The notes beneath the pieces are model-generated. The model saw only the letters and a list, made by a program, of their open reading frames with translations. It was not told the origin of the DNA and did no database searches. Shown here one piece after another: positions 144-39,570 of a DNA stretch of 39,570 nt; the first letter of the stretch is position 1, and every line of letters begins with the position of its first letter. The DNA lies in NCBI GenBank assembly GCA_032718475.1, contig JAUCBJ010001252.1, positions 1 to 39,570 on the forward strand, written 5' to 3'. This DNA comes from Nemertoderma westbladi (lineage: Eukaryota; Animalia; Xenacoelomorpha). A program made the position numbers and the translations under genes.

Positions 144-989
144 AGTGTGGCCTTCGAGAAGCTAAGATAATAGCAGTTAATTAGTTAATTAAGTTATTAC
201 GGTAAAAACACCATTTTCAACCTGCCTGTTAAAGGAAATTAATTGTTTTACAGTATAAGATTTAAATAATTATAATTAAAAATTATACAGATGTAATCCA
301 CATACTCCATTCTATTATAGTTTTTAATTAGTTCAAGTGATTTGCTTTAATAATTGTGTCTTTAATTGATCTAAAGTAATTAAAACGGCAAAAAAAATTT
401 ATTCTCATTAAATACTGCTCATTTATTGGCCAACATGCTGGTACATAGATGGGATGTGTGTGTCATTCCCAGTTGCTGGGAATGATTATTGGTCAAGTCT
501 CTGCTGCTGGCTGGGAGTTGTTGCTAAGACTAACCAGAGAGGAATAGTAATAGACAACCAGTATTGCTATTCCAGCCCAGACAGCATTCTTTAAATTCAC
601 TATAAATGTTGTATTGCTATCTCAGGTGAATGACAGATATCATAACATAAATACTATCCATGGCATGGCTGTTGTGTAGGCTTCTGAAATAGTTTATTCC
701 ACAATGTATATGTCTGGTTATTTTTTAATTGAATTTTTGCAAAGTAGTAAAATTAATGTTCTTAAAAATAATATTATTATTTTATATGTAACCTAGGAAA
801 TTAGCTACATTTTTTCGCTGCAGCTTTAAGAGTGTACATTAATTTAATATTATTTCAATACCCATATTACTACATCGGCATAAGATGCGTTGGCGTTGTA
901 TCACACATCTCCACATATCACACATATCCACATAGATGTATCAACAGTTACTCGCACAGTTTCGAAACTTCGCATAGTTATAACTGTAT

Positions 990-1531
990 AAAGATCGTCA
1001 GTCTGCGTTTAGGAAAAATATTTTATAACAAAACAGGACAAGCGACGAGCGCAACGAGGCATATAATGAAGACGAGTACTGCGTTGACTAAATTATTATA
1101 TAAACCACCTGGCTTCACATATTGATCGCATCCCTAGTTATTATTATTATAAAGAACGTCCTAGCCTGCGTTTAAGAAATATATTTAAATACAAAACAGG
1201 ACGAACGCAACGAGGCTTATAATGAATACGAGTACTGCGTTTATTATATTCCTATAAACCACCTGGCTTTGCATATTGAACGTGCGATTGGAAATAAGTT
1301 CGTGCTACCCTTCCGTGGGTGGTAGATGTCGCGGTTATGTATTGGTGGTTGGGAAGGGTGGGGGGGGGGGGGGGGATTAAAAGGGGTGAACACGTACTGT
1401 CCCCCTTTCTTTGATTGATTGGTGGTGTGGGTAAATTTCTCAAAACCTGATTTTGTGATACAGTCGCTCAATTTTAATTTGTATCTCATAACTGGGCCTC
1501 GTAATGCGCGAAGGCCCCACGAACGTGTAAT
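990..1531. repeat. Dispersed repeat with an internal ~165-bp tandem duplication and a terminal GC hairpin
   Basis: ~995-1130 repeats at ~1165-1285. 1130-1531 is the reverse complement of ~21015-21415 and ~24456-24855. It ends GGGCCTCG..CGAAGGCCCC-ACGAACGTGT, the last part being the sequence that opens the window. Confidence 0.8.
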
Positions 1532-2392
1532 CATTGCATATAGCTCCACACCTACTGTATCTGTTTTGCATTTTACATTGTAGTGTTGACCGCGATGAGA
1601 AGTAGTCAGTAGTATCAGTTTAATAAAATAATCAATAAATATTATATTGAAATTTAAAACAAAGACTACCAGTATTATATTTAAATTCAATTTTCCTGCT
1701 TTCACTGTCATTACACTGTTATCCTGTTACAGTACAACACAAAATAGTTTCATGGTGTTATAACCCTGCGTGCACCGACTGGTGCGATTTGCACCGACTC
1801 AAGTATGGTCTGGGGGAGTCCCACCCCCCCCCCCCCCCCCCCCCCCCCCCCGTGAAACCGCCCCTGCAGGGGCCAATGTTTTAGCCAGCCTTTTGCCACT
1901 ATAGTGGGCGTCTGCACTGCTGGACTATCATACGACGGACATTACATGTTTTCACTTTTCATTTCCGGTTACCTAGCTATGTTTTCACTGTAATGTAGAT
2001 TGTTCTTGGGAACACGCGACCTTCCGTATCGTTGCCAAGTTTTCACTACCATTAACCATTAATCGAGACCAATAACAGCTAGAGCTAAGAGCCCTATTTC
2101 AGTTAGTCAGTATCATAAAACAACACGGACTTTGAAATCAGGATGCTGCTAACAGTCAGTCACACTTGGTTTCTTTCTAAACTGAAACATGAAACTTATG
2201 AGAACCGGCCTTATATAGTGTGATCTCATTTAATTAAAGGTATAATTCAATCCCATGAAGTATGCGTTTCAGATCCTGTGTTTTAAATAAATAAAAAGTT
2301 TGTTCATTTATCTTCATTTTACGGTATTTTTTAAAGGTCTAGGTATCTGTAATAAATTTAGCCAAAGGCTAATAATATTTGAAAATTATCCG

Positions 2393-3739
2393 ATGAGCGA
2401 TTATCCTAGTATTTCGGAACACATGTGTTATATTCTACTCGGAGTGTTAGGGCTTTTGGGGCTGGTAAGTGCCGGTTGCTATTCCTTCTACTTTCGGCCC
2501 AGGAAGCAACAATGTTGCAAACAACGTGACGTCATAATTAAAGACATGAACAAAGGTAAAGGCGTTATATCCGATAAACATTGGTCTCGATCCATAGCCA
2601 ATCGGGGCGTAGGTCGTGTGTTCGGATTGGCTAATATCTTTGTTATCGACGATGGTGATAAATCATATAGGAAGGCGGCTACTCCTATTTTTAAACGTGT
2701 CCTGGATAAAAATCATAAAGAAAACATTGCGGCAAAAGCGAATGAGGTTGTAGTTATTGCATTGGATAATATTGACATTGCCGCTGACGGCACATTAAAT
2801 TTAGTTAAATTCACTCAATTTATTGTCCTTATTACTTTCTCGGAGTCATTCCTGGGGGTGGAGGGATTGCGTATTAAAGACCGTGCATTACAAGTGGCGA
2901 CCCTGATCAATGACCTGTGGTCGTTGAAGAACATATCGGATGCAAATAAATCCGATGAAGTTGCTGGTAAACGTAAAACATTGAACATGATTCTCGGCCA
3001 ATGCGGGGCCGCGGACCCTCACAATGTTTGGAAACCTTTATGTGAGGTCACCCGTAACAAAGTTCAGAGTGACCTTAATAGTAAAGGAGGAATCTTCAAC
3101 TGGATTCTGTCGTTACGTAAGTTGTTTAACAAGTCTTCCTCACTGCGCGGCTACGCAGCGGCGGAAGATGACGTCACAAACCTACTAAATGTAATCATCC
3201 CCGGATATGAGACGATGTGGCGAAGTGTTTTTAATCTTCTAGTTGAGGTCTCGCGGAGACCGGAAGTGCGAACTGACGTCATAGACGAGATCGTTAGCGA
3301 CCAGTTGGGATGCTGTCCACTCCTGATTGGTTGTATCTACGAAACACTGCGACTCTACCCCCCGACCAAATCAATACAGCGCGTTGCCATGGATACAAAC
3401 AATGACGTTCTACCTGGGACCTGCTGCGCGGTCGACGTTGTATCAATTAACCGGAACCCCTTTGATTGGCCCCGACCGAAGGTCTTCGATCCTTGTCGTC
3501 ATGGTAACCCAGTAAACGGATCCCGATTTCGTTCTCGGACTTTAACTTTCGGTTGCTTCCCGAATCGCTGCATCGCTTCCACCGGTTACGCTGTTGATTT
3601 CATCGATCGATTAGCTAGGGCAACGCTTAGTTACTTAGAGTTGGAGTTGCCAACCACTTTGCAGGTCGACAAAGATGGATTGCTTATTAACAGCCGCAAT
3701 ATTTACAATAAACTACGTGTCAATTACAAATTGATTTAA
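2393..3739 (+). CDS. Cytochrome P450, divergent, intronless (~448 aa from ATG 2393)
   Basis: N-terminal hydrophobic anchor then RPRK; I-helix IIPGYETMW; K-helix ETLRLYPP; PERF-like FDPCRH; heme loop FGCFPNRCIA; AATAAA at ~3768. Confidence 0.88.
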   Translation: MSDYPSISEHMCYILLGVLGLLGLVSAGCYSFYFRPRKQQCCKQRDVIIKDMNKGKGVISDKHWSRSIANRGVGRVFGLANIFVIDDGDKSYRKAATPIFKRVLDKNHKENIAAKANEVVVIALDNIDIAADGTLNLVKFTQFIVLITFSESFLGVEGLRIKDRALQVATLINDLWSLKNISDANKSDEVAGKRKTLNMILGQCGAADPHNVWKPLCEVTRNKVQSDLNSKGGIFNWILSLRKLFNKSSSLRGYAAAEDDVTNLLNVIIPGYETMWRSVFNLLVEVSRRPEVRTDVIDEIVSDQLGCCPLLIGCIYETLRLYPPTKSIQRVAMDTNNDVLPGTCCAVDVVSINRNPFDWPRPKVFDPCRHGNPVNGSRFRSRTLTFGCFPNRCIASTGYAVDFIDRLARATLSYLELELPTTLQVDKDGLLINSRNIYNKLRVNYKLI

Positions 3740-3854
3740 TTAATACTTCAGCACATTTGCTTCAAACAATAAATAAACAATGGAGTTACACGGAACCACG
3801 CATTGATAACAACAATGCGTTGTATGTACTATATGAAAATTGCTCAGACTTTCG

Positions 3855-3995
3855 CCAGACTACATGTGTACCAAGTTTGGTTGGATTTCATTGAGGATTG
3901 TTCGAGTTATTAATTAACCTTGAAATATTGGGATCGACTGATCGACAGACATAGAGCTTGAGATAGTGGTACCCGTATGCTAAGCTCGCTTAATA
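3855..3995 (-). mobile_element. Diverged Helentron/DINE-like repeat fragment
   Basis: ACATGTGTACCAAGTTTGGTTGGATTTCATTGAGGATTG..CGAGTTATTAA core and GGTACCCGTATGCTAAG end, similar to 26870-27010. Confidence 0.5.
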
Positions 3996-4889
3996 ATTAC
4001 GTGACTCGCTTTTTATATAATATTTTTATATATGGAATATAGGTTTGGTGCATGACCTACTCTACTATACTGTATATAGTATGTATCTGACCTACTATAG
4101 GTCATGTTTGGTGTTTTCAGAAGTCAAATAAGCTTGAATAATTAAAGCAGAATTATTTTTTACGGAGCAGTGTGTAAATTTAGAAAAATCGCTGGGCAGG
4201 TGATTCAATTATTGTATATGGTCACAGGCAAAGCGATTCACAAGTCAGATTTTTCCTTCGGAGAATTGCAGTTATATAAAGTTAGCAAACGCGAAAATTT
4301 ACAAAAATGTTTCAAGGAAATTTTACGAATGTTTCCGAACTTGGAGGGGATTTCCCCTCCCAGAAAGCAGGATTATCTTGTATTAGCACACTGCTCTGTC
4401 ATCATAGTCACCTGTACGGCGGAGAGGGCCCCATTCTAACACACAACGATGAACATACAACACACCAAAGATAAAAATTAACCCCTTCCCTTCCCGTCTA
4501 ATGACGTTTTTCCGTGTTCGGTGTATGACGTATTACCTTTTTTATTATAACTAATATTAGTTATGAAGAATTAATTAGTAATAAATAATTAAAAATTTTT
4601 CCACCATTCGAACATATTTGATTCACTACAACTTTAATTTTTTCATTTGCCAAGTGTAGTTCAAAAAATTGTGAATTGTTTGATTGTTCATTTTATAAAA
4701 AATGTAGGTTCTGTGGGGCATATCAGAAAGTGGATTAGTACGGAAGGGGTTAAGCTACTTTCAAGAAAATAAAAAAAAAGTACGCTCACGTTAGTCTTCG
4801 TATTACATTGATTTGTAGAGGATGGAGTGTCCATACTGTCCAATGTACCACCCCCTTAAAAAAATATAAACACGCCACTTGGTGTCCAT

Positions 4890-6343: not shown

Positions 6344-10465
<4,122 letters not shown>

Positions 10466-10611
10466 CTAGGTTTCTCGTCAATCTTTAAATTATTAAGTAT
10501 TATATATATATAAACTACTTTTCAGTGAGGTGAAAAGTAATAGACCTAGGGGAAAATATCATATTTTGGAAACAATGGGTGAATTTTTTGGTCATATTTT
10601 AATATAATCCG

Positions 10612-10940
10612 CGTTACAGGTCAAAACGCACCTCGGTTAAAACGTACCCGATCAATAACGTACCCATATTTCGGGTATGTTTTAACTTCGGGACCCACAA
10701 CACATTATATTCATCCTAACAAAACTTGCTATAACCAATCAAATTCGTTAGTTCCGGAGATTTAAATGGAAAGGAGCAGGTTTCAGTGACGAATTAATCT
10801 ATTCAAAACAATAAATGAGAGTCAATTCAATAGCACAGGTTACAGTTTATTTTTCTTTTATAAAATTGTTAAAATACAATTGTTAAAACGTACACAGTAT
10901 TCGGGTACGTTTTAACCAGGGTACGTTTTCACTTGTTCCC
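10612..10940. mobile_element. Mutator-like MITE, copy 1
   Basis: Ends ACAGGTCAAAACGCACC..GGTACGTTTTCACTTGTTCCC with subterminal AAAACGTACCC repeats. Paralogous to 12448-12808. No TSD visible. Confidence 0.7.
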
Positions 10941-11725
10941 AAAAAAATGTTACTTTCTATTTGTAAAATAAATAGTTAGTATGCTATGTTTTATATTAAA
11001 CAGTTTGCCGCATAGTTTAAAAATTATAAAAAAAAGTAAAATTTTAGATTTAATTAACTGATTAATTATGCCTAATTTAATTAAACTATGAAAAATAATT
11101 TATTAATTACTCAGGATCAGGAAGCCCGTCGATATAGTGCGGTTAGCAGCATTCTTCTTACAATGTCACCATCATAACAACCAGTTGCTATGGAAGGTAA
11201 CACGACTCATAATATTAACCATTCGAAAGTGCATATGCATAGGCCTACTCATTATATAGGCAGACAGCCATTACGTTTATTACATCAAGCATTTAGACTG
11301 ATAGACAAGAAATTGAGGGAGTGAAAGAATACAAGATAGTAAATATATGATGATAATAGATGAGGTAAAGCAAATATGCTAAAATGGCATTCCGCTCTAC
11401 CTCAATGTCAATATCTAATCTTATGTGGAAAGGAGTAAGTTACAGTGGCAGCGTTTTCTAACCAAAACAATAAATGAATCTAGATTTCTTAATCAATGGA
11501 CAGACGGAAAGGAGCAGGCAGGTAGGTTACAGTGGCGAGCTTTTCTAACCAAAACAATAAACGATAACAGGATAACTCAATAACATCTATGTTACAGTCA
11601 TATGAAATACGAAAATACCAGAGGTGCGGATATGAACTGTACTATAGCTGTATAGGTTAATATACCGTCAACTGGGGGGGGGGGGGGGGGGGCATATCTG
11701 CATATGTACGCTTGTAGTTGTACGT

Positions 11726-12380
11726 CAGGCTGCAAACCACCACTGAACCGCGCACAACGCCTGCGCACAATTTTTCAGCCGCGCAATATCGGACAATATA
11801 CCGCGCATGCACCGAAAAAAACGCGCACACCACATTTTAACAATGTAAACGAAAAACATACGCGAGTGAAGCGAGCAAAACTTTTTCCATTAACATTGCA
11901 AAATGAAAAAGAAACGCGAGCAAAACTCAAAGTGAAGTGAGCGAAATTTTTTCATTCTAACAGTGCAAAATGAAAAAGAAACGCGATCAAAACTCAAAGT
12001 GAGCGAATTTTTTTCATTCTAACAGTGCAAAATGAAAAAGAAACGCGAGAAAAACTCAAAACAGCAAAGAGAGCGAAATTTTTTCATTCTTGACAGTGCA
12101 AAATGTAGAGAAACGCGAGCGAAGCGAGCGAAATTTTTTGTGGCAAATTATTTTTCTCACTTTGAATGCATGTAAACTTTTTTACGCCTCATCCACCTGT
12201 ACCCAGGTACCCCTGTACGCGCACTTTACGACTTTTGAACTTTTGCACAGAATACTGCGCACTTTTGTTGTCTTTCACATAATTTCGCGCACTTTTATTT
12301 CAATTCCGCGCACTTTTACCGCGCATTATTTCAAATACGCGCACAACGCGTTGCGATTTTTGCATTTCATTTGCAGCCTG
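11726..12380. mobile_element. hAT-like MITE with internal ~57-bp tandem repeats
   Basis: 11-bp TIR CAGGCTGCAAA..TTTGCAGCCTG, CGCGCAC subterminal motifs, tandem units at ~11850-12140. No clean TSD. Confidence 0.65.
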
Positions 12381-12447
12381 GGCTTGTACGATACATCTGT
12401 ACATGTTTTTGACCCTTCAGTCCAGTCATTTACTACAACATCGGAAC

Positions 12448-12808
12448 GGTAACAGGTCAAAACGTACCCGAACAATAACGTACCGATTTTCTGGTATACG
12501 TTTTAACTTAGACAACACATTATAGCAGTATACTGGTATAGTCATCCTAACAAAACTTGCTACAACCAATCAATATCGTTAGTTCCGGAGATTTTAAGGG
12601 AAAGGAGCAGGTTACAGTTACGAATTAATCTAACCAAAACAATAAACGAGTCAATAGCGCAGGTTACAGTTTATTTTTGCTATTTATTTTTGTACTACCA
12701 AAACTTAACTAACTGCCTAATGCATCATTGTTAAAACACCCAGTATTGGGTACGTTTTTGTTCGGGCATCGGGTACGTTTTAACCACGGTACGTTTTCAC
12801 TTGTTCCC
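12448..12808. mobile_element. Mutator-like MITE, copy 2, with 9-bp TSD
   Basis: TIR GGTAACAGGTCAAAACGTACC / GGTACGTTTTCACTTGTTCCC. CATCGGAAC is duplicated at 12439-12447 and 12809-12817; a 9-bp TSD with GG ends is typical of MULEs. Confidence 0.85.
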
Positions 12809-14249
12809 CATCGGAACATTTTAATTAAAAATTACTACGGCCTAAATTCTGAAATTCGAACCAATAAATAATATGGTTCGTTCACAAACCAGGAAAGTAA
12901 CACAGAAGTATGCAGATTACAGTAGGCCCTGCCTTATACTGTTATAATTGCACACAGCAGTATTGGATTGGAACGGAATGCCTTCCACATCCACATACTT
13001 CTGACTTAGGCCTATAGTCAGTTAGTTCAGTAGTTTGTAGTATTCAAGTTATAGCAGTATAGTCCTGTCAGTAGGGAACATACCCTTAAATAAGCTCCAA
13101 AAGTGGGTTCTTATTTAAGGAAAATGGCTCTTATTTAGGGGTTTTTGGGCCTTTTTTGGATATTTTTTCGATATAATATGCAATAACTTGTTTCAGGAAA
13201 AAATACCGCATAATTTTATTTCACAATGTAAAAGTTGGGTCTTTCTTGAACATAAAGCAAAAAACCAGAAAACATTTCACCGTCCGGTTTTTTTTCTACA
13301 AGCGTTTTAAAATTGCATCAAAAATACGACTAGTTCTTAAATAAGGGGGATTTTTTAAATTTACCTTATTTAAGATATCGAAATCGAAAATAAATACCAA
13401 AAGTCCCTAAATAAGAACTTTTTGACCTGGGTTTCTTATTTAGGAATACAATTGTATTCCAAAATCTGCACATTCCTTAAATAAAATAAATATTCCTTAT
13501 TCCTTACAGTATATGTTACACTTCTTTCATAATTCTTTGATTTATGTCAGTCTGAATATTGCTAATTGTTGTGTTAAGGATAAGGACAATGGTTGCACTG
13601 CACTCTATAAATCCTCTATAGAATATCGTATCATAACTGCATAATGAAGTTGCTAGCACTGGCATTCTTACCTCACACGGTAGCATAGAATAGCCCATTG
13701 ATATTCAAAAGAATAGCCCATCGCCCATCTAAGCTTACATCATTGTCACGTATTTCGATGAGACATGAGACATGACTCAAGTAACTGGACATCGCCGCAC
13801 AGTTTCGAAAAACTAACTTGTGTCCTGCATTTCCTCTTCTGTTCCGCGTTACGCCCCACTTAGATGGATTGTCCACAATGTTGTACTTGAAAGGTGTGAA
13901 AAAAAAAACCAATGTCAATGTCATGTCTCATGTCAATAGGCACAAAGATGGTTCCGTCCGGCAGCTGATAGCAGGATAGACGTTAGAAGGTTAAAGATGA
14001 TGACTGGGTGGCGTTTTTGGCCTAACTGACTCAGGCAGCAGTGGGACACGTTCGTGGGACCTTTACGCAGCGCAGCATGAAGTGAGCAAAGCCTTACCTA
14101 GCCCTAGCTGATAGGGGTCCCACCCCATTAACATGTTGTCTTTCGTTAGTCAGAGGTCGTTCAACACAATACTCGTCTCCTTAATTTGCCTCATTGCGTT
14201 AGTTTGTTTTTTACCAAACTTCAGATTATTTCTAATCTTTTGACAGACT

Positions 14250-14398
14250 ACATACCGGTACATACCAAGTTTCGTTTAATTTCATCAAGGAATGACCGAG
14301 TTATTACCGATAAAAAATTTACAACGACGACAGACAACTCGTTAATAGCACCCATATGCTAAGGTTTCGCTCACTTGAACGTGGCTCTCCCCCACATT
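14250..14398 (-). mobile_element. Helentron/DINE-like fragment nested in the TIR element
   Basis: TACCAAGTTTCGTTTAATTTCATCAAGGAATGACCGAGTTATTA core and GCTAAGG..CTCACTT..CGTGGCTC..CCCCACA end. Confidence 0.55.
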
Positions 14399-14414
14399 CA
14401 ATCCGGTTCGACGC

Positions 14415-15722
14415 AGTTTGTTGCTCGTTGTTGCTCATTGCTGCTCATTGTGCTTTATTATTTCTCATTGTTGGTCATTGTTGCTCGTTGTTGGTCATTG
14501 TTGCTTGTTGGTGCTCATTGTTGCCCGTTTGCCGTTAGTTGTACTTTATTATTGCTCGTTGTACTCTATTATTGCTCGTTGTGGCTCGTTGTTGTACTTT
14601 ATTATTGCTCGTTCAATCGTTGTTCCTCATTGTTGCTCGTTGTTTCTCGTTGTTGTACTTTATTATTGCTCATTGTTGCTCATTGATACTCGTTGTTCCT
14701 CATGTCCTAATTATTGGTCGTTGTTTCTCGTTGTTGCTCGTTGTTGTACTTTATTATTGCTCGTTCAGTCGTTGTTCCTCATTGTTGCTCGTTGTTTCTC
14801 GTTGTTGCTCATTGTTGCTCGTTGTTGTACTTTATTATTGCTCATTGTTGCTCATTATTACTCTTGTTACTCGTTGTTGCTCATTGTTGCTCGTTGTTGT
14901 ACTTTATTATTGCTCGTTCAGTTGTTGTTCCTCATTGTTGCTCGTTGTTTCTCGTTGTTGCTCATTGTTGCTCGTTGTTGTACTTTATTATTGCTCATTG
15001 TGCTCATTGTTACTCGTTGTTCCTCATGTCCTAATTATTGGTCGTTGTTTCTCGTTGTTGCTCGTTGTTGTACTTTATTATTGCTCGTTCAGTCGTTGTT
15101 CCTCATTGTTGCTCGTTGTTTCTCGTTGTTGCTCATTGTTGCTCGTTGTTGTACTTTATTATTGCTCATTGTTGCTCATTATTACTCTTGTTACTCGTTG
15201 TTGCTCATTGTTGCTCGTTGTTGTACTTTATTATTGCTCGTTCAGTTGTTGTTCCTCATTGTTGCTCATTGTTTCTCGTTGTTGCTCATTGTTGCTCGTT
15301 GTTGTACTTTATTATTGCTCAATGTTACTCGTTGTTGCTCATTGTTGCTCGTTGTTGCTCGTTCAGTCGTTGTTCTTCATTATTGCTCATTGTTGTTCGT
15401 TGTTTCTCGCTGTTGCTCATTGTTGCTCGTTGTTGTACTTTATTATTGCTCATTTTTGCTCGTTGTTGCTCATTGTTTCTCATTGTTTGTTGCTCAATGT
15501 TACTCGTAGTATTCGTAGTTCTGTAGTTGCTCATTGTTTGTCATTGTTGCTCTTTCAGTCGTTGTTCCTCATTATTGCTCGTTGTTGTACTTTAGTATTG
15601 CTCATTGTTGCTCAATGTTACTCGTTGTTGCTCGTTGTTACTCGTTGTTGCTCGTTGTTTTGTTACTCATTGTTCATTTGTTGCTCGTTGTTGCTTATTG
15701 TTGATCATTGTTGCTCGTTGTG
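14415..15722. repeat. Complex TTG-based satellite, (G/A)TTGTTGCTC-type units, with 324-bp higher-order duplication
   Basis: 9-10-bp units with GTACTTTATTATTGCTC variants. The block TTCCTCATGTCCTAATTATTGG recurs 324 bp apart (identical ORF starts at 14714 and 15038). Confidence 0.95.
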
Positions 15723-17026
15723 CATTTTTGCACCTATCAAATTAAGCTCAGAAGCTCCCTTATCTCGGCATCTTGCAATGTCCTGGAAAGGTTAGGCAGT
15801 TAGGAGGTCATAACTGTCATAAGCAGTTAAGGGCAGAAGGAGGACGGGGCTGGGAGACGAGGTTATAAGAGACATTATATAAGGATATTTAATTTAATTT
15901 ATTTAATTTAATATATGAGAAATGAGAAATATTTAATTTATTTAAGGAGTATGCAGATTTTGGAATGAAATTGTATACCTAAATATGAAACCCATGTCAA
16001 AAAGTTCTTATTTAAGGACTTTTAGTATTTATGTGTACAAATTCGATGTCTTAAATAAGGTAAATTTAAAAAATCCCTCTTATTTAGGAACTGGTCGTAT
16101 TTTTGATGCAATTTTAAAACGCTTGTAGAAAAAAAACCGGACGGTGAAATGTTTTCTGGTTTTTTGCATTATGTTCAAGAAAGACCCAACTTTTATATTG
16201 TGAAATAAAATTATGCGGTATTTTTACCTGAAACAAGTTCTTGCATATTATGTCGAAAAAATATCCAAAAAAGGCCCAAAAACCCCTAAATAAGAGCCAT
16301 TTTCCTTAAATAAGAACCCAGTTTTGGAGCTTATTTAAGGGTATGTTCCCTACTGCCTGTTGTCATTACTGCAATATGCAACTTCTGCTGTACCTGTGCA
16401 GCCTGTGTACTGTGCAGGTACAGAGGTACCGGTAGCAAGTTTATGCCTACTAAATAGTAAATTACCGGTACCGGTACCGGTAAGGTAGCTACTGCTTTAC
16501 TCCATACTCTGGCACTACAATTAATACCTGAATGTCGTAATGTTAGAATGAGAGTATTATTAGCAATAAAATGTTCTTTATAAACAGCTGCAGTTGAACG
16601 TTGTTCTACTGTAAGATTGGATTAACCAATGAACGACTTCCGTGTCATCAACTTGGCACTTGGCTTGGCTGGCGTTATCAGATATTCGTATATGCGTCAT
16701 AGTCAGTCCACCACCACATGTTCCCTACAACACACACTTTATAGCCAGCGTCATTGATTTGTCCCTTACCTGTAACTGCATGCCTAGAGATGGAATGCCA
16801 CACTCATGTAGATACATTATGAAGAATGGATTCGATGGATTCTATGTTTACCCAATTTACCATAGCTAACTGCAATCTGGCTATATGCATACATAATAAT
16901 GTATGCGATAATATGTATACGATAAGGCTTACTGTACTGAGTGCTGTCCGCAGTGCATTTATCATTATTTTTGTTACTGTACAGTGTATCTTTAGTATTT
17001 ATTTAGTGAAGTGAGAAGTGAAGGTT

Positions 17027-17974
17027 AACCAAATTAGTTCCAATCGCACATTTTCAAAGGCGAACTGAGTTCCCATTGAAACGAATTTAGTTCCAAAATA
17101 AATTTTACAAAGCGAACTTAGTTCCAATCGAGGTGAACTTAGTTCCAATCCTAGAATATCAAAACGAACTTAGTTCCAATGATTCCCCGTACTTGGTTCC
17201 AATTTAAGCCTCATGCGAATTTAGTTCCAATGGAAACGAATTTAGTTCCAATTTTGGCGAATTTAGTTCCAATTTAGGCGAACTTAGTTCCAATAACTAG
17301 AGAAAAGGAAAACGAATTTAGTTTCAATGCATGCGAATTTAGTTCCAATTGATGCGAATTTAGTTCCAATTGATGCGAATTTAGTTCCAATGGATGCAAA
17401 CTTAGTTCGAATGCAAGCGAATTTGGTTCCGATGTTTCATGTGTGGGGCGAGCCACGTAGTTGGCGAAGAATCTGTTTAAGGACACTATTAGGTGGATGG
17501 TTAAATAATAATTGTAAATAACTAACCCAAAACGCCTAATCTCCTAACCAAAACAATCTTATCCCAAACAACGCCCAACCTCTTAACCCAAACAATTCAA
17601 TTAAATTCATTTATATTTAATCATTTGAAATTATATTCATTGTAAAAAACAACGCCCATTGTCTTACCTCCTTGGTTAGGAGGTTAGGAGGTTGGGCGTT
17701 TTGGGTTAGTTATTTACAATTATTATTTAACCATCCACTTAATAGAGTCATTAAACACAGATTCTTCGCCAACTACGTGCCTCGCCCCACACCTGAAACA
17801 TTGGAACTAAATTCGCCAAAATTGGAACTACAGTAAATTCGTTTTCGTTTGTCTCTAGTTATTGGAACTAAGTTCGCCTAAATTGGAACTAAATTCGCCA
17901 AAATTGGAACTAAATTCGTTTCCATTGGAACTAAATTCGCATGAGGCTTAAATTGGAACTAAGTGCGGGGAATC
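17027..17974. mobile_element. Foldback-like element with arms made of ~21-bp tandem repeats
   Basis: CGAA(T/C)TTAGTTCCAAT units. ~17181-17550 is inverted relative to ~17672-17974, including the unique inner segment GTGTGGGGCGAGCCACGTAGTTGGCGAAGAATCTGT. Confidence 0.85.
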
Positions 17975-19368
17975 AATTGCATGAATTAATTATATTTATT
18001 TTACCCCTGATATTTCTTCCCACTTCTTAGATTATGACATGATTATTTGAATTAGGATTTGTGCCTGGTGACCAATAAAACCCTAACCCAAAATCAAAGT
18101 CTAACCCAAAATCGCCTACCAAAAACGTTGACTGCTTAACTGTTACTACAGTCCCGTAGTTAATCTATAGCCTCGTTTTTAAATTTTTAGTTAAATCTAA
18201 AAGAGGCTCAACATTCCCAGCATACTGTAAAATACCCATGAGTATCCGCGTTTCTGCCACACCTGTGGCGTTCGTAAAAAGTAGTACAATATTTGTTAAG
18301 ATTTGTGAAACTTTCGTCATTGATTATCGTTAGTCCGAATAATTTTCCAAATGCGTATACAGTATAGTATTGCATGTTATAATTCGCGATTCGAATTCAT
18401 GCGATTCGAATTCCACACCACGCAAAAATCACATCCGTGGTTTCTTTTGTTTGTGGTACATATGCGATAGAATGCAGGCAGCCCACAATAGTGGTGGTGA
18501 CCCCGCAATACGCATGTATTTTCAACTACATACAGGAATTCAGGTCAATCTCTACTCAGTAAACATTAGATTGTCCACTTTATCAGTGGCCTCTTTCACT
18601 CTCTTTGTTAATAGACAGTCAGGCACAAGACAATCACTCTTTGGCATTGGCGACGTTGCGAAAATATACCAGGGGAGTCTTAGCCTACTCCGGCAGAACC
18701 ATGTCTCACTCTATAGATACGACCAGGGAAACTCAACATACAGTAATAATAAATTAAGTATAATAATACTGTATAATTATATTAACTACTTTATACATAG
18801 TTTATATTTCCCACTGATAAAGTTCAAACTTTGACATACTGGTAGGCCTACAGTATTTTGGCAACTCGCCCTATAGTTCGGTAATATAAAGGTACTTTTT
18901 TGGGATGAAGATATTGCCTGGCCAGCATTTCTATTCAAGTCAATATTTATTTATAATTACTGTATTAAAACATTACCTTGGTTACTAAAAATTAATTATT
19001 GACTGACATGGAAACCAAACATGTATTTCCTTTGCTGAACTGAAATGTATAATTTGCCGAGCGAGCGAGCGTTCAGCTACCGAAGTTATAATTATTATAC
19101 ATCAAGGAAAAAAAAACAATTGTTTTCCACGTAATAGCCTTTTTTAAGTTCCACGTAATACAGTAATTACCTTTTCACCTCCCTTTATTGCTCCCCCATC
19201 TATATACCTTACAGTATTAAGGCAATTCAATTTTGTGGCTATCGCATAAAATAAATGCATGTGAAAATCAATTAATCATAAAATAACAAATATACCATCC
19301 ATATACAAATCATTGTCAACCTGATAACTAACACTCACAGTACGTCAGAGTATTGCCCTAATGGAGCA

Positions 19369-20380: not shown

Positions 20381-22194
20381 CAGGCCTAGCATTCTTAGTA
20401 GACGCTGCATTACAGCAAACAAATTGCATAGTGGTGGCGCACTATTTTTGTTAAACCAGCACAGCATCTCAATGTGCAGCTGTAATACAGGAGTCTAGGA
20501 GTCTAATTCTAATTAGATCAATGTTAATAAACAATTAAGGGAAAGGAGCAGGATACAATGGTAGGATATTCAAACTAAAACAATAAACGAAAGAAAAAAT
20601 AAACTTTGCTCCTGATCAGCTGTATGATTTGAGTCGAATTTTCCCTGGAGAGGGATGAATTCTAATTGCTTCAAGAGTCCCCCTACCCCCCCCCCCCCCC
20701 TCTGTAATTGTAACTATTAAATTTAACCTAAATTAAATTAAAGTCCATAATTTAGTAAAGCCCAGATAGATCAATTGTTAATTCAACAGGAATGTAATAA
20801 ATTAGCGTTTGCACGCACCGCACACCATTATATATATATTGGTAAACCCCATATACCCGGTAACTAATGATGGATTATAAATTCATTTATTACTCTCGGT
20901 TCAGACTAAATTCAATGAAAACGGATACAACTTTTAAGACCATTGTCTTGTCATATCATTATGCCCTTGTTCTCAATAAAAGAAACACTCAGCCATTCCG
21001 GTGTCAGAACATAAATTACACGTTCGTGGGGCCTTCGCGCAGCACGAGGCCCAGTTATGAGATACAAATTAAAATTGTGCGACTGTATCACAAAATCAGG
21101 TTATGAGAGATTAACCCACACCACCAATTAATCAAAGAAAGGGGGACAGTACGTGTTCACCCCTTTTAATCTGCACCCCCCCCCCCCCTCCCTTCCCACC
21201 CACCAATACATAACCGCGACATCTACCACCCACGGAAGGGTAGCACGAACTTATTTCCAAACGCACGTTCAATATGCAAAGCCAGGTGGTTTATAGGAAT
21301 ATAATCAATGCAGTACTCGTCTTCATTATAAGCCTCTTTGCGTTCGACCTGTTTTGTATTAAAATATATTTATTAAACGCAGGCTGACGCTCTTTATAAT
21401 AATAATACCTAGGGATGCCAGCTTCCAGACTTTCAATCTTTACTGCCGCGCAAACCCCGCAGAGGAAGTTTTGGTTTGAGAGATCAAGCCCATCGGCAAT
21501 TGGTGTTTCAATTTCGGTCCAGGAACTCTGACAATGGGAGCATTCAACCTTAGCTGTGGTCCATTCCCGTGGTTTCGGCTTCCTTTTCTTCGTCCCAATG
21601 ACAGATTCTTCTGAAGACGTTCGATTCGCTTTCAGTGTTTTGAAGTTGTATTCGAGTGGACAGTCGCGCCGGTTTCGAGGTAACCATACCGACCTGTGAT
21701 AAGCGTTGGTTTTGTTGAGTGCCGGTATTCATCTTCTCTCACCTCTTCAATGTCAGATGTTGCAAATACTGATAACACGAATAACGGTATATATTTCAAT
21801 ACTTGTCAATAGTAATATATATAATTTAGATAACTATTTTATATCTGTACTGTTGAGCAAACTCTACATAAATTCCAACCTTTGTATCGCCGGTAGTGCT
21901 GTTGCTGTGCAAGTGATGAAGTGCTAGTTGCCACCGGTCAGCCGGTACCGGTAGTAGGGTGGTACCATGGCCTACTACACACAGGCCATGACAAGGACTT
22001 TGCTGTGAAATTAGCGTAGGCTGACTGGTGACTGATGAATTATCAAATATTATATTTTCCACGAATGCAGGGTCCATATTTAAAAGAAGATGACTAGATT
22101 TTCGTAAAGTAATTTAATTGAAACAGTATTTAATAATTAATAAATTAATTAACGCTAGAGTTCCTGCAGCTTTTATTTGTTTGTGGCTGCCTCT

Positions 22195-22495
22195 GGCTAT
22201 GTTTGTGGCAGGAATGTTTGAACGCTTATAAGTCAGTCAATCAAGGATGAAATGGAACCAAACTTGGTACACATGTAGTCTATAAAAAATTTTGAAATTC
22301 TACACACAGACAGACTTCTACAGTTCCCCTGTCTGCCGCTAGGGGGCGAATTAACAGAAACTTAAAAATAGCTGTAATTATAGAACCAACGATCAGATTC
22401 ATCTGAAATTTAGTAGTAGTTACCTAAGAGCATTGCTTAATTAGAAATTCTACAGAGACTTTTACAGTTCCTGTCTGCCGCTAGTGGGGAATTGT
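22195..22495 (+). mobile_element. Helentron/DINE-like fragment (duplicated at ~25645-25940)
   Basis: GGATGAAATGGAACCAAACTTGGTACACATGT core plus two internal CAGTTCC..TGTCTGCCGCTAG units. Confidence 0.5.
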
Positions 22496-22607
22496 TAAAG
22501 CTCCAGTTCAACGTGCTTAGCACGGTTTAATAAACAATAAATTAATTATTTTATTCAATACAGTAATTATAACAGTAAAATGCAATGTATTCTATTTTTT
22601 AGTAAAA

Positions 22608-22876
22608 TCAAGAGACAGGAGGGGGGTGGGACTGGACGCAAATCCCATCTTGGCGAATTAATATCCCGCCTCAATATTAATTTCTCAATTTTGGGAAAGG
22701 AGCAGGTTACAGTGGCACGTTATTTTAACCAAAACAATAAAGTAAACACAATAGAACAGGTTACAGTTTTATTTTTGAGAGTAATCAGCTGTTGTTATTT
22801 GCGTCCAATTTCCCCTGGAGAGGGATTAATTTTTATTGCGTCCAGTCCCCCCCCCCCCCCCCCCCCCCTATCTTGA
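22608..22876. mobile_element. MITE with G/C-tract TIRs (duplicated at 26056-26321; relative near 20538-20700)
   Basis: TCAAGA..GGGACTGGACGCAA / TTGCGTCCAGTCC(C)nTATCTTGA. Confidence 0.65.
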
Positions 22877-23024
22877 AATCAAATACCAAAAATATATTTA
22901 TTATATGAACAATCTATTTGGAAATTGTAAGTTCGGCCTATCTCTTTACCATAAGCTCAGTATCTTTATCTGGTGTGTTTTTATTATTTTACCAATTATT
23001 TAATACGTTTGATAGAATTGAACA

Positions 23025-23659
23025 ACACCGCCCAACACAACCAACTCTCTATCCGCCTCGAGCTGTCGAGCATCGAGAATACGAGAAACTCGATCGAAAT
23101 ACCTGCTTATCCCAGTAGTATCCGTCCGTAGTCACCGGACCGCTGCGGTTTACTCCCGTAGAACAGTAGAATTCCCGCAGCTTTCGACCCAATTCGACAA
23201 CGAATTCGCTTCACACTTTCACGTCGCAGAGAACGTAATCCAGTGCGATACAAGTATGCCCGACGTTCAACCATTTCCCCCAGGCGATACCAGGATCCGG
23301 GCCGCCGCTAAACCCAGATCGCAATCCTCGTCGATTCGTCCAGTCGTCGACGTAAGTCAGTAAGTGGGACTCTTCCCACCGCACTCCAAGGTGGGTGACC
23401 GGAGTGAGGCATGAGGAACTTGGCAGTGGCCCGCATTACGATCTGACCGACCGCCGTATTCCCAGTGTCTGAGTGTAGTAAATACCCAAATAGAATCGTA
23501 CTGACAAACAAGCAATTCCGTAGCACTGCGTAGTATTCCCCCGTTAATCACCTCTTGAAGCAACTCGGCTGCTCGGGTCCAGATACATCGGACTGTCGGG
23601 AGCGTTTCAGACAGTAATGGCAGAATGGAGCGGCATTTGCGAATATTTCCAATGGTTTT
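23025..23659 (-). pseudogene. Aldehyde dehydrogenase family 3 (fatty aldehyde dehydrogenase-like) internal fragment
   Basis: After removing small insertions it reads KPLEIFANAAPLLSETLPMYLDPSCF..VINGG..ATELLVCQYDSIYYTGNTAVGQIVMRATAKFLTPVTLECGGKSPTYVDEDCDLGLAAARIAWGKWLNVGHTCIALDYVLCDVKV*SEFVVELGRKLREFYGSKPQRSGDYGRI, which includes the ALDH LE-GGKSP and catalytic Cys motifs. Confidence 0.92.
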
Positions 23660-24854
23660 ATAATAAATAAGGGGATTAAATGCTAAAACAAATGGATTAT
23701 TCCTAACCCCACCCCAATACAGCAGTATACCTAACAGTATATAGCTTGTACCACAGTACCATAATCTGATAATCAGCACAGTCAGCCTACGCTAATTTCA
23801 CAGCAAAGTCCTTGTCATGGCCTGTGTGTAGTAGGCCATGGGTGGTACCTACGGCAGTACGGTGCGCACTACAACTGACAACGGCAGTACAGCAATACGG
23901 CTGTACGGTGTACCGTGCCAATGCAGCAATGACTGAATGATTAGCGGTAACTATCTAAACTATTACTGTATTATATTATTATTACCGGTGCCGGTACTGG
24001 GCTAATTAGGCCTAAACTTTAATCACCGCAAGGGTTGCCGGGGTTAATTAGATTACATGATATGGCATGTCTGCAGTGTATGGTACCGGCTGACCAGTAT
24101 TGCAGTATTGACTGATTGCAGGATTCTCGATTCAGGGATTGAGTACAGCCTGACAGTACCGGTACACATGGTACATGCAGACAACCCCAATGTATTGCAA
24201 AATTTGTCAGAAAAACCAGCTGATTTATCCTACAGTAATAATAATTTAACGCATTTTAAATTTGGATAAATAAATTTATTATAACTGCAATAACAGTTAC
24301 ACTGATGCTGCACGAAGACCCCACGCAAATTCTACTTGGAAAATTTTCAAACTTTTGCCAAACAACATGTGTACCAAGTTTGGATAGATTTCATCAAGGA
24401 TTGGCCGAGTTATTAACGTTTAAAATAAAATACTGAAAAAAAACGCGACAGAACGACACGTTCGTGGGGCCTTCGCGCAGCACGAGGCCCAGTTATGAGA
24501 TACAAATTAAAATTGTGCGACTGTATCACAAAATCAGGTTATGAGAGATTAACCCACACCACAAATTAATCAAAGAAAGGGGGACAGTACGTGTTCACCC
24601 CTTTTAATCTGCACCCCCCCCCCCCCTCCCTTCCCACCCACCAATACATAAACTGCAACATCTACCACCCACGGAAGGGTAGCACGAACTTATTTCCAAA
24701 CGCACGTTCAATATGCAAAGCCAGGTGGTTTATAGGAATATAATCAATGCAGTACTCGTCTTCATTATAAGCCTCTTTGCGTTCGACCTGTTTTGTATTA
24801 AAATATATTTATTAAACGCAGGCTGACGCTCTTTATAATAATAATACCTAGGGA

Positions 24855-25188
24855 TGCCAGCTTCCAGACTTTCAATCTTTACTGCCGCGCAAACCCCGCA
24901 GAAGAAGTTTTGGTTTGAGAGATCAAGCCCATCGGCAATTGGTGTTTCAATTTCGGTCCAGGAACTCTGACAATGGGAGCATTCAATCTTAGCTGTGGTC
25001 CATTCCCGTGGTTTCGGCTTCCCTTTCTTCGTCCCAATGACAGATTCTTCTGAAGACGTTCGATTCGCTTTCAGTTTATTGTTGGCGTTTGTGTTTTGAA
25101 GTTGTATTCGAGTGGACAGTCGCGCCGGTTTCGAGGTAACCATACCGACCTGTGATAAGCGTTGGTTTTGTTGAGTGCCGGTATTCAT
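24855..25188 (-). other. Truncated Cys-rich ORF, possibly a LINE ORF1 PHD-like fragment (frameshifted copy at 21415-21732)
   Basis: ECSHC...FFCGVC pair of CxxC motifs followed by KIESLE; runs into a dispersed repeat. Confidence 0.35.
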
Positions 25189-26957
25189 CTTCTCTCACCT
25201 CTTCAATGTCAGATGTTGCAAATACTGATAACACGAATAACGGTATATATTTCAATACTTATCAATAGTAATATATATAATTTAGATAACTATTTTATAT
25301 CTGTACTGTTGAGCAAACTCTACATAAATTCCAACCTGTGTATCGCCGGTAGTGCTGTTGCTGTGCAAGTGCTGAAGTGCTAGTTGCCACCGGTCAGCCG
25401 GTACCGGTAGTAGGGTGGTACCATGGCCTACTACACACAGGCCATGACAAGGACGTTGCTGTGAAATTAGCGTAGGCTGACTGCTGAATTATCAAATATT
25501 ATATTTTCCACGAATGCAGGGTCCATATTTAAAAGAAGATGACTAGATTTTCGTAAGTAATTTAATTGAAACAGTATTTAATAATTAATTAATTAATTAT
25601 CGCTAGAGTTCCTGCAGCTTTTATTTGTTTGTGGCTGCCTCTGGCTATGTTTGTGGCAGGAATGTTTGAACGCTTATAAGTCAGTCAATCAAGGATGAAA
25701 TGGAACCAAACTTGGTACACATGTAGTCTATAAAAAATTTTGAAATTCTACACACAGACAGACTTCTACAGTTCCCCTGTCTGCCGCTAGGGGGCGAATT
25801 AACAGAAACTTAAAAATAGCTGTAATTATAGAACCAACGATCAGATTCATCTGAAATTTAGTAGTAGTTACCTAAGAGCATTGCTTAATTAGAAATTCTA
25901 CAGAGACTTTTACAGTTCCTGTCTGCCGCTAGTGGGGAATTGTTAAAGCTCCAGTTCAACGTGCTTAGCACGGTTTAATAAACAATAAATTAATTATTTT
26001 ATTCAATACAGTAATTATAACAGTAAAATGCAATGTATTCTATTTTTTAGTAAAATCAAGAGACAGGAGGGGGGTGGGACTGGACGCAAATCCCATCTTG
26101 GCGAATTAATATCCCGCCTCAATATTAATTTCTCAATTTTGGGAAAGGAGCAGGTTACAGTGGCACGTTATTTTAACCAAAACAATAAAGTAAACACAAT
26201 AGAACAGGTTACAGTTTTATTTTTGAGAGTAATCAGCTGTTGTTATTTGCGTCCAATTTCCCCTGGAGAGGGATTAATTTTTATTGCGTCCAGTCCCCCC
26301 CCCCCCCCCCCCCTATCTTGAAATCAAATACCAAAAATATATTTATTATATGAACAATCTATTTGGAAATTGTAAGTTCGGCCTATCTCTTTACCATAAG
26401 CTCAGTATCTTTATCTGGTGTGTTTTTATTATTTTACCAATTATTTAATACGTTTGATAGAATTGAACAACACCGCCCAACACAACCAACTCTCTATCCG
26501 CCTCGAGCTGTCGAGCATCGAGAATACGAGAAACTCGATCGAAATACCTGCTTATCCCAGTAGTATCCGTCCGTAGTCACCGGATTACATGATATGGCAT
26601 GTCTGCAGTGTATGGTACCGGCTGACCAGTATTGCAGTATTGACTGATTGCAGGATTCTCGATTCAGGGATTGAGTACAGCCTGACAGTACCGGTACACA
26701 TGGTACATGCAGACAACCCAGCTGATTTATCCTACAGTAATAATAATTTAACGCATTTTAAATTTGGATAAATAAATTTATTATAACTGCAATAACAGTT
26801 ACACTGATGCTGCACGAAGACCCCACGCAAATTCTACTTGGAAAATTTTCAAACTTTTGCCAAACAACATGTGTACCAAGTTTGGATAGATTTCATCAAG
26901 GATTGGCCGAGTTATTAACGTTTAAAATAAAATACTGAAAAAAAACGCGACAGAACG

Positions 26958-27073
26958 ACAGGTTGATTAATGGTACCCCTACGCTAAGGCTCACTCACTT
27001 CGTGGCTCGCCCCACAGGTTGATTAATGGTACCCCTACGCTAAGGCTCACTCACTTCGTGGCTCGCCCCACAG
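26958..27073. repeat. Exact 56-bp tandem duplication of a Helentron/DINE-like terminus
   Basis: ACAGGTTGATTAATGGTACCCCTACGCTAAGGCTCACTCACTTCGTGGCTCGCCCC occurs twice. Confidence 0.95.
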
Positions 27074-29846: not shown

Positions 29847-29941
29847 GGAAAGTACAGCGAGTTAGTTGTAAGCTGTCAATCTAAAGTACAAATAATTTGT
29901 ACTTTAGATTGACAGCTTACAACTAACTCGCTGTACTTTCC
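29847..29941. repeat. Perfect 95-bp palindrome (47-bp arms, 1-nt spacer)
   Basis: GGAAAGTACAGCGAG..GTACAAAT-A-ATTTGTAC..CTCGCTGTACTTTCC. Confidence 0.97.
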
Positions 29942-30264: not shown

Positions 30265-31329
30265 CTATAAAATTGAGAACCTTTGTTTAGGAATATCAAT
30301 AAATATATTAGAATCTGGAGTGCAAACATCAGTTTGTTTACAGTATATCTCCGGGAAGACTGTTGTCTTCATTGTTGTATACGGATTGGCAAATTCGTTG
30401 AGAACATCCGACTCAAGTTCATCTATTTCCGCCTTGAGAAGGATAATTTCTTCAGTTTGGGCCATTACCTCTAACTCTACCGCTTTATTGGTTAACTTTG
30501 CGTCATCCCATTGGCCATTGCTCTCGTCTAGCGCTCGTTTAGCTGCGTTATCTTTAATTCGATTCATATTGACTTCGTGGTTGCCAATGTACTTCTCTCT
30601 CTCGATATCCAATATACCCTTTGTATACGACACGTCTTTATCATGCTCTTCGTTAATACACTTTATTTCCCTCTCCAAACGCTCTATATTACGCACATTG
30701 TTTATATATTCCCTCTCCTTATAGGAATGTAAAATTCTCAATTTGTCTTTCCCTTGGTTAACCTTATTATCCACCGTTCTCAGATCGCTTTCGATTTTAC
30801 CCCTTTCAAGTTTAATCTCTTCGCTGGTTTTCTCGAGATCTAACTGAGCCTCCTCGCATAAACTTCCTGCGTACTTCCCTATGGTTTCCTGTGCTCCGAA
30901 ACAGTTATCGTATTTGCGCAACAATTCCCGAGAATGTTTGCAACTGGAGCCTTCCAGCTGGTCGATCTCTTTCATCAAGCGGTAATTATCGGTAGTTAAA
31001 CGCTCTCGACTCATAAGTAATTCTTCTAACGTTTTTAATTTTGTTTTAATTTTCATTCTGAGAAGATTCCTCTGTTCCTCGCGCAGTCTCGCATCTTGCG
31101 GTTTCTCTATCGGTTCGCGTTTCGGTACCCATGGATGTCTGCACGTGCTGCTACACGCGGTGCCGGGTTTATTGCCGCGGTCACCGTGTGCCGAGCGCGT
31201 CAGTGGGCCGCTGGTAAACGGGGGTCCGACTGGCGGTTTACTCGACGTTGACTGGGCAGCACTACTGGACGACACTAGTGGGGTTGACTTCCTTTTCCGT
31301 TGCCAGTCTGTGTAATCAATTTTCTCCAT
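30265..31329 (-). CDS. Coiled-coil protein, C20orf96/DUF4618-like
   Basis: 354-aa intact intronless ORF with a low-complexity N-terminus and a long coiled coil. C-terminal CTPDSNIFIDIP resembles the C20orf96 CTPDMDVILNIP motif (from memory). Confidence 0.75.
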   Translation of the reverse strand: MEKIDYTDWQRKRKSTPLVSSSSAAQSTSSKPPVGPPFTSGPLTRSAHGDRGNKPGTACSSTCRHPWVPKREPIEKPQDARLREEQRNLLRMKIKTKLKTLEELLMSRERLTTDNYRLMKEIDQLEGSSCKHSRELLRKYDNCFGAQETIGKYAGSLCEEAQLDLEKTSEEIKLERGKIESDLRTVDNKVNQGKDKLRILHSYKEREYINNVRNIERLEREIKCINEEHDKDVSYTKGILDIEREKYIGNHEVNMNRIKDNAAKRALDESNGQWDDAKLTNKAVELEVMAQTEEIILLKAEIDELESDVLNEFANPYTTMKTTVFPEIYCKQTDVCTPDSNIFIDIPKQRFSIL

Positions 31330-35569: not shown

Positions 35570-37028
35570 ATTTCCGTATACATACAGACATACATACAAT
35601 GCGATGCAGTCATTCAGTCAACAATGCAGCCATGAGTTATCGTTGGTGCTTGATTGTGTGATGTCGTTTTGTTTTATCTGTCAAGAGTTTAGGCCTAATT
35701 CTGTAATTTATTGACTTAATACTGTAATACTGTAATACAGCTACAGCACTGCAGTAATAAATTATTACGGTATGCTGGTAAACCGCCGTACCGGTATGTC
35801 CAGATGTCTGTATTTTAATTACAGAATTAACAGACTGCAGACTGACAGCCGGTCAGCCGGTACGCTGATACGTGACCCCGTTCCCGTAGCGCAGTAGCGG
35901 TAGCCGGTAGCGGTAACGTACTACTGTACTAACGTACATCTGTCTGTCTGTACATAACGTCGACTAGGAAGTACTGTACTCAGTACTGAGGTGAGGCGTG
36001 AGGTACCGGTCTGCCAGTAGCTGACCTACCGGTAGTGCTGTCTGCTGGTCTGGCCTGCTGACTGTAGTCAGGTAGTGCTGTATTGTTTTGAACGAATCGA
36101 TAAAAACAGGATTGCCCTTTGGTGAATTCAAATTTCCCGCTTTAATGTGCAAATGGCATCGTTGAAGAGCATACCTGTTTTTAAAGAATCATTGACCAGT
36201 ATACTATAATTATTGTCTGTTCGAGAACGGAATATACGGATATTATAATACCTGAAGCAAATTAATATGTTTAACTACTGAGACCGTTAGGTCGAAGTAG
36301 TTAGTTATACATGATATATCTGCTGAAGGAAGGAATAGGTATTATAGCCATTCTCGATCAGACAATAATTAGTTTATCCCTTATAGTTAGTCGATGCTCA
36401 AAAACACCCACTGTCGTTTTGTTTCCAAATATATATTATTACAGACTTTCATATTTGAAGTTTCGACTCAAAAATCCCCTTACAGAGAAAACGAGAGGTT
36501 ATCTTCTAACCATTCGCATTGTTGTCCGCCTCCAATGCTACAGTTCGCCTCTCTCAGGCTACAGTATAAAGCAATAATAATTTGAAAATTCTTTATTTGG
36601 GCATACAATAATGCATCTCTATTTATTTTTCTTAGTGATTTTAATTTCACATTCTTACGAAAGCTTTGTACTACCTAATTTTGTAGTGACAAATTAACTA
36701 AACCCAAATAAAAAATATAAATGACAAGTTAGGGGGGGGGGGGGGGGTAGTACCCCCCTATTTTGGAAATTGACAAAAATGTGTTTTTTTATTCTATCTT
36801 GTGCCGAATTTAATGGAGATTTAAAATCTGCAAGCAGTATTATCATATCTTTTCTCAAACTCAAGTTATTATGCAAAACGTAAGAGCTAGTCTGATATTT
36901 GAAAAGCCTTCGAGCAGAACTATATTTTACAATACGGTGTACGATGTTTAGTAGCACAAAAAATAATTTTCACTCAATTTTATGGTCCAGAGACACAAAA
37001 ATGTGAGGTTCAATTTGGATACCCCCCC

Positions 37029-39418: not shown

Positions 39419-39570
39419 GTTAGTGGTTACCCGTCTAGGGAATAATAATAGGCAGAAAGTCCCATTCTATTTATTTATTAATAACAATTATATTTCGCTT
39501 GACAGACCAAAAATTTAATGAATTTAAAGATTTGTACACAATCATCAAACATAAACGACATATTAACTTT

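Follow-up and report, generated by a model that had tools for sequence, protein, structure and literature searches.

A CAGTAG-ended, non-autonomous DNA transposon of Nemertoderma westbladi as a candidate source of eight-base CAG/CTG scars

The window, i.e. the whole stretch of DNA that was analysed, comprises 39,570 nt of Nemertoderma westbladi DNA (contig JAUCBJ010001252.1; ~39% GC) and holds genes for polyubiquitin, P450, an Arf-like protein, a DUF4618 protein, an acyltransferase and sphingosine-phosphate lyase. It also carries a non-autonomous DNA transposon of 3,287 bp with CAGTAG ends at 13069–16355, together with short words, here called scars, in which a five-base sequence is repeated around a CAG or CTG (N5-CAG-N5 or N5-CTG-N5). 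An initial annotation of the window had proposed this element as the candidate source of the scars. The element starts at 13069 with CAGTAGGGAAC and finishes at 16355 with GTTCCCTACTG. Its parts are the following.

13064..13068, plus strand: left copy of the target site duplication (TSD), CCTGT; exact repeat at 16356–16360, the outermost repeat around the arms
13069..13504, plus strand: left terminal inverted repeat (TIR), starting CAGTAG, from the arm alignment
13505..14227, no strand assigned: non-coding interior common to other family copies, from contig depth; no Pfam match in the frames tested
14228..14392, no strand assigned: nested copy of a different dispersed repeat; matches 44–126, 24343–24425 and 26845–27013
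14418..15721, no strand assigned: tandem array inside the element, with a 10-bp period and a 324-bp higher-order repeat
15918..16355, minus strand: right TIR, from the arm alignment
16356..16360, plus strand: right copy of the TSD, CCTGT

Both the letters and the coordinates of the element with its CCTGT flanks (13064–16360) were as first annotated. The two arms, 13069–13504 and 15918–16355, aligned over 438 columns with 93.4% identity, which bears out the long TIRs of the initial annotation and corrects their length from 426 bp to ~436 bp, with a fuzzy inner edge. Complementarity between the arms ended exactly at 13069/16355, i.e. at CAG, and a five-base match outside both ends had a chance probability of p ~0.0013. 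With a single complete copy seen, the element could be mis-bounded and the double CCTGT fortuitous; given this p value, and since 13069 is where both the complementarity of the arms and the contigs of other loci stop, we consider this extremely improbable. Polinton-like elements have AG ends and a 6-bp TSD; such a reading was rejected, as CCTGTC and GCCTGT differ.

Each arm repeats, in both orientations, the 10-bp motif CTTAAATAAG, counted here with up to one mismatch. The left arm holds eight copies, at arm positions 17, 42, 62, 268, 297, 338, 367 and 408, and the right arm holds seven, with an eighth at two mismatches. The remaining 36.3 kb contained 0 exact and 4 one-mismatch copies. The motifs are likely to be transposase-binding sites. 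Between the arms, the interior consists of non-coding DNA, the nested dispersed repeat and the 1.3-kb tandem array, and the element is non-autonomous. Across 28 window frames, 10 of them from the element interior, Pfam revealed no transposase; Rfam gave 0 matches.

To look at other copies of the family, contigs from four public DNA runs (X1–X4, from at most three samples) were compared with positions 10600–14400. In run X1 the summed contig depth, which is not a copy number, was 6,900–18,900 over the left arm versus 13–15 for unique contigs, and runs X2 and X3 had a similar pattern. In run X4 arm depth was much lower, 34–151 versus ~45–55 on unique DNA. The element end is thus much repeated in three runs. 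The interior bins 13521–14155 reached depths of 800–4,300 in X1. In contigs X3-23 and X4-30 the match started exactly at 13069 and the remainder was unlike the flank; this boundary is therefore common to other copies; the 5-bp TSD was seen on one copy only. One X1 contig crossed the left junction without differences. Another contig, X4-29, followed the left flank to 13068 and continued with 46 letters differing from the element, and may represent an empty allele of the insertion site. Terminal patterns of the element had 0 matches in metagenome contigs and 0 in prokaryote genomes, and a gapped terminal pattern had 0 in viral contigs. A 16-base terminal word that occurred at 14 viral loci was rejected as chance, since none of the matches extends (7–18 of the next 44 bases alike).

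For the scar count, one copy of a local duplication and the tandem arrays were masked, which left 30.0 kb. There were 59 exact scars (29 CAG, 30 CTG), compared with 0.9 ± 0.9 expected from Markov simulations and a maximum of 5 in 200 simulations, so the scars of the initial annotation are real. The excess was confined to five-base repeats, with 59 scars at five bases, 12 at four and 2 at six. The control centre GAC/GTC gave 5 and the next commonest centre 7. Other spacer lengths between five-base repeats showed no clear excess (CA, 14 versus 7.6, p 0.02 uncorrected). When one TIR arm was masked as well, 58 exact scars remained versus 3.5 expected from all other centres, and one-mismatch scars numbered 46 versus 22.5 expected; the ratio of exact to one-mismatch scars suggests a mean scar age of ~4% substitutions per site.

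The 58 scars comprised 47 distinct five-base targets with 32% GC. The centre mirrored the flank in none of them (0/58), and the target itself contained CAG or CTG in 3/58, which upholds the constant three-base centre proposed at the outset. TA began 31 of 116 half-sites versus 8.8% expected (p 1.6e-8). Non-coding DNA held 57 scars in 24.0 kb and coding DNA a single one in 5.6 kb. Scars were clustered, with up to 12 within 600 bp versus 5.4 under a uniform null (0/5,000 draws, p < 0.0002). Scar density was not significantly related to CpG ratio or GC (p 0.07 and 0.13, respectively; 42 bins). Two clusters stand out.

12844..13062, plus strand: four scars, at 12844, 12934, 13023 and 13050, in the last 220 bp before the left end of the element
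35580..36076, plus strand: densest cluster, with 12 exact scars, immediately 5' of the minus-strand acyltransferase gene

Scars of this form might also arise without a transposon, if host break repair or slippage added CAG or CTG between a five-base duplication. Such an origin would account for the clustering, as repair hot spots would produce it, and for the 6/58 scars that lie in 8-base tandem runs. We regard it as very unlikely: 52/58 scars stand outside tandem runs; the centre does not vary, is no copy of the flank and is absent from ancestral states; and the window itself holds an element that has just these ends and a duplication of just this length. To our knowledge, no repair pathway adds a fixed trinucleotide. 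Head-to-tail scar units with an 8-base period, reflecting repeated hits on one target or slippage, were seen at 8–37 and 35717–35737.

For several scars it could be shown that they are new 8-base insertions. The sites concerned, and two further scar-shaped words in the element, are listed here.

12521..12541, plus strand: nested double scar, a second 8-base scar within the first; 16 bases missing from the paralogous repeat copy
13632..13644, plus strand: scar CATAA-CTG-CATAA in the element, missing from other copies
13967..13979, plus strand: scar GATAG-CAG-GATAG in the element, missing from other copies
15744–15756 and 15792–15804, plus strand: two further scar-shaped words in the element

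The repeat copy at 12455–12808 has 16 bases that are not in its paralogue at 10635–10940, and these are read as a scar within a scar; the paralogue differs at one target base. At 13632, the 8 letters were left out in contigs of X1, X3 and X4, not X2. At 13967, loose ends of X1 and X3 contigs before 13986 carried the target once, without the 8 bases. Since both scars are missing from other copies, this copy was hit after landing.

A third source of evidence is a dead gene, which lies within the local duplication.

23045..23701, minus strand: class 3 aldehyde dehydrogenase (ALDH3) pseudogene, E 2e-10; nine scar-shaped words (7 exact, 2 one-mismatch)
23108..23123, plus strand: TATCC-CAGTAG-TATCC, ambiguous, since an ordinary scar plus a 3-base slip would read just as well

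Several scars in the pseudogene coincide with its frameshifts. It was aligned to a profile of 43 of 139 homologues (those of 250–620 residues) with no preference for insertion length, and the alignment placed six frame-relevant insertions of at least 5 bases (8, 8, 24, 16, 11 and 5), as well as two 3-base ones. Both 8-base insertions lay wholly within scars (~0.08 each by chance), the 24-base insertion spanned two scars and one more 8-base repeat, of a different centre, and the 16-base insertion spanned one scar. In a weak test against one bacterial ALDH, removing the best subset of scars gave 70.9 bits, compared with 39.7 for the raw sequence and 67.8 for the best of 200 random removals. The piece of pseudogene sequence had no match in a word-based protein search. 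At 23108 the full CAGTAG is present as the initial annotation had it and lends the argument drawn from it no independent support: the site appears in the alignment as a 5-base insertion, and the frame would be kept alike by an insertion of 5, 8 or 11 bases. A retained CAGTAG at this site is possible and not needed. The pseudogene has one in-frame stop in ~190 aligned codons and at least six insertions. At 23328–23348, TCGTC occurs three times, with spacers GAT and then CAG, i.e. a third 8-base insertion with a non-standard centre adjoining a scar.

Either arm starts with the three bases of the scar centre, and the scar repeat has the length of the TSD. Since the element matches the scars in these two respects and lies beside four of them, we infer that its family is the natural source of the scars. 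At a rough probability of 0.66, we propose that the element family, or a sister moved by the same unseen transposase, gives rise to the N5-CAG/CTG-N5 insertions through a cut three bases inside the element and a five-base stagger. Insertion would duplicate five bases, as is seen for this copy, and targets would vary with a leaning to TA at the start of each half-site, as is seen in the scars. If the chemistry resembles that of Sleeping Beauty, the non-transferred strand would be nicked three bases within either end, and the transferred strand at the very tip, leaving a 3' CAG overhang on each flank. The overhangs would pair C:G, A:A and G:C, and end-joining could resolve the mismatch either way to give TSD-CAG-TSD or TSD-CTG-TSD, a net gain of 8 bases. 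Because CAG overhangs can pair at two of three positions, this would explain a single dominant product. Scars would then build up where selection allows, in keeping with their being clustered, inside each other and inside the element, and near-absent from intact reading frames. A centre that stays constant over 47 targets agrees with cleavage three bases within the end and does not agree with flank hairpins.

Several observations weigh against this proposal. The window holds one such element versus 58 scars, and another CAG-ended family could be their source. Pfam returned 0 relevant matches in the 10 interior frames of the element, so the open reading frame by which the initial annotation hoped to classify a transposase was not found in this copy. 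The 5-bp TSD rests on this copy, no second one having been seen with both flanks, and no empty allele of the CCTGT site was read. The six scars in tandem runs are possibly slippage copies. The equal counts of CAG and CTG (29 and 30) follow from strand symmetry and are uninformative on repair. In the pseudogene, the 11- and 5-base insertions match no standard scar, a loose overlap test between insertions and scars was not significant (4/6, p 0.08), and removing the three scars at 23564–23628, which are jointly frame-neutral, lowered the fit to the family (16.5 versus 22.8 bits for the raw sequence).

The window also contains scar-like words flanked by TA. In unmasked non-coding DNA, TACAGTA occurred 16 times and TACTGTA 18 times versus 4.75 expected each, TACCGGTA 9 times versus 0.76 expected and TAGGCCTA 8 times versus 0.28 expected; TACATGTA was not enriched. 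Five-base scars contain only 7 of the 34 TAC(A/T)GTA words. The TA-flanked words are likely footprints of separate TA-targeting families.

Among the remaining features, the local tandem duplication (21018–24462 versus 24456–26964) covers ~2–3 kb at 98% identity; most of the ALDH3 pseudogene, ~910 bp, is missing from the copy at 24456–26960, and a 63–79-bp piece of the duplication is also found inverted at 23764–23841. A foldback-like element at 17027–17975 contains several nested inverted arms as well as 21-bp subrepeats; a near-perfect 95-bp palindrome, perhaps a collapsed miniature inverted-repeat transposable element, lies at 29847–29941. The polyubiquitin gene (6354–10459, minus strand) has 18 units that are 98% alike in DNA. 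Four genes (2393–3739, 30265–31329, 34118–35570 and 38316–39518) have 350–500 codons without an intron, which is unusual for an animal. Among the best 120 database proteins, those nearest to the sphingosine-phosphate lyase were animal proteins of 45–53% identity; with identity at or below 53%, the host therefore lacks a close annotated relative.

DNA transposons are sorted by the length of their target and by their excision chemistry, and a five-base target with a Sleeping Beauty-type remnant would join traits assigned to separate groups, i.e. the hairpin-forming Transib and hAT versus the TA-targeting Tc1/mariner. A transposase, if found, would test how stagger can be uncoupled from cleavage chemistry, and a non-TA, Tc1-like enzyme would be useful as a tool. 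Because the five-base duplication is long enough for scars to be recognised one by one, they form a countable, datable record of excision, unlike TA-type scars, and would allow genome-wide measures from sequence of insertion-site preference, hop rates and the transposon share of small mutations.

How the element compares with known transposons was assessed from the literature. In Sleeping Beauty, a nick three nucleotides within the element precedes the one at the tip, and the 3-nt 3' overhangs become the footprint (PMC7827188, PMC8151067, PMC2874221). The scars share with it the 3-nt CAG/CTG remnant between target duplications and a favoured TA, here at the half-sites, and the element shares long arms with repeated motifs, those of Sleeping Beauty being ~220 bp (PMC7827188, PMC8151067). 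They differ from it in the variable five-base target (47 distinct in 58 scars) versus TA, in arms of ~436 bp with eight motifs versus two, and in a net gain of 8 versus 5 bases. Tc1/mariner elements generally use TA, and Zator 3 bp (PMC10045372). The element has CCTGT in place of a TA duplication and CAGTAG ends in place of CAC, confirming the mismatch to Tc1-type targets and Transib ends pointed out in the initial annotation. The scars have the form left by Tc1/mariner, in which the cut falls a few bases inside the end and the footprint consists of the terminal bases; the element would have this trait if its family is indeed their source.

Five-base TSDs are described for Transib, with CAC ends and GC-rich targets (PMC1131882), TDD-4/5 of Ginger2, with TGT ends (PMC2836005), hAT5 and, as an upper bound, the clade of CACTA, Mirage, Chapaev, Transib and kin (CMCT) with CA..TG ends (PMC12730594), and rare IS481EU copies (PMC10045372). 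The element resembles Transib in the 5-bp TSD of its one copy. It departs from it in CAG versus CAC ends, the latter perfectly conserved in PMC1131882, and the scar targets are TA-biased with 32% GC versus GC-rich, the element's own TSD being 3/5 GC. Ginger2/TDD ends are TGTNR versus CAGTA here. hAT, Transib and RAG form flank hairpins and heterogeneous junctions (PMC8151067, PMC6900584), and the flank hairpins of Transib and RAG would not yield a constant centre. Unclassified C. elegans TIR families resemble the element by description in being non-autonomous, with a 5-bp TSD and no known partner (PMC2817418).

These comparisons raise the question of whether the element simply belongs to one of the 5-bp groups, hAT5 or the CMCT clade, and would excise through flank hairpins, with the scars coming from another, unseen CAG-ended family. 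Short subterminal motifs in both orientations are typical of hAT and CACTA ends, and the element arms have many of them. The TA-type scar words of the genome likewise imply several scar-making families. In addition, the third terminal base of hAT ends is G (PMC1131882, Fig. S7 legend), hAT5 has a 5-bp TSD, and CMCT elements have CA..TG ends and TSDs of 2–5 bp (PMC12730594), all of which the element shows. By its ends, it is compatible with hAT5 and CMCT; by excision chemistry it would not be, if the scars are its own: these are constant and not derived from the flank, and the hairpin route of hAT gives variable footprints (PMC8151067). We nevertheless consider this alternative unlikely. Arms of ~436 bp far exceed the 5–27 bp of hAT (PMC2874221), a weak point for non-autonomous derivatives. 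The element also lies within the cluster of four scars in 220 bp, as expected from a common target preference. One would still need a second family that shares both the 5-bp duplication and the CAG ends, so that the puzzle is shifted and not removed.

Alternatively, the element may make the scars by means of a transposase of a described superfamily, the pairing of traits being already in Repbase or Dfam or reflecting a small shift of target spacing in a known lineage. Within a single Transib lineage, TSDs of 5, 3 and 2 bp and differing terminal bases are reported (some ends start with G), with the warning that such traits should not override transposase homology (bioRxiv 10.64898/2026.08.26.747230), TSD length and terminal bases also vary in IS481EU (PMC10045372), and the C. 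elegans 5-bp-TSD families are unclassified (PMC2817418). On the other side, a full-text search confined to freely accessible papers revealed no element that combines a five-base TSD with a constant footprint of three bases. This alternative overlaps our proposal, from which it differs in novelty and not in mechanism, and we take it seriously without favouring it. Equally tentative is the idea of an undescribed cut-and-paste lineage, with Sleeping Beauty-like excision (three bases inside, no hairpin) and a five-base stagger, each active site attacking just before TA. Such a lineage would have hopped so often as to leave an 8-base scar about every 400 bp in non-coding DNA and every 70 bp in a dead gene, and its excision would rank among the main sources of small mutations in the genome. 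For the element itself, the best account of these comparisons is that it is Tc1-like at excision and, by its target, not a member of Tc1/mariner.

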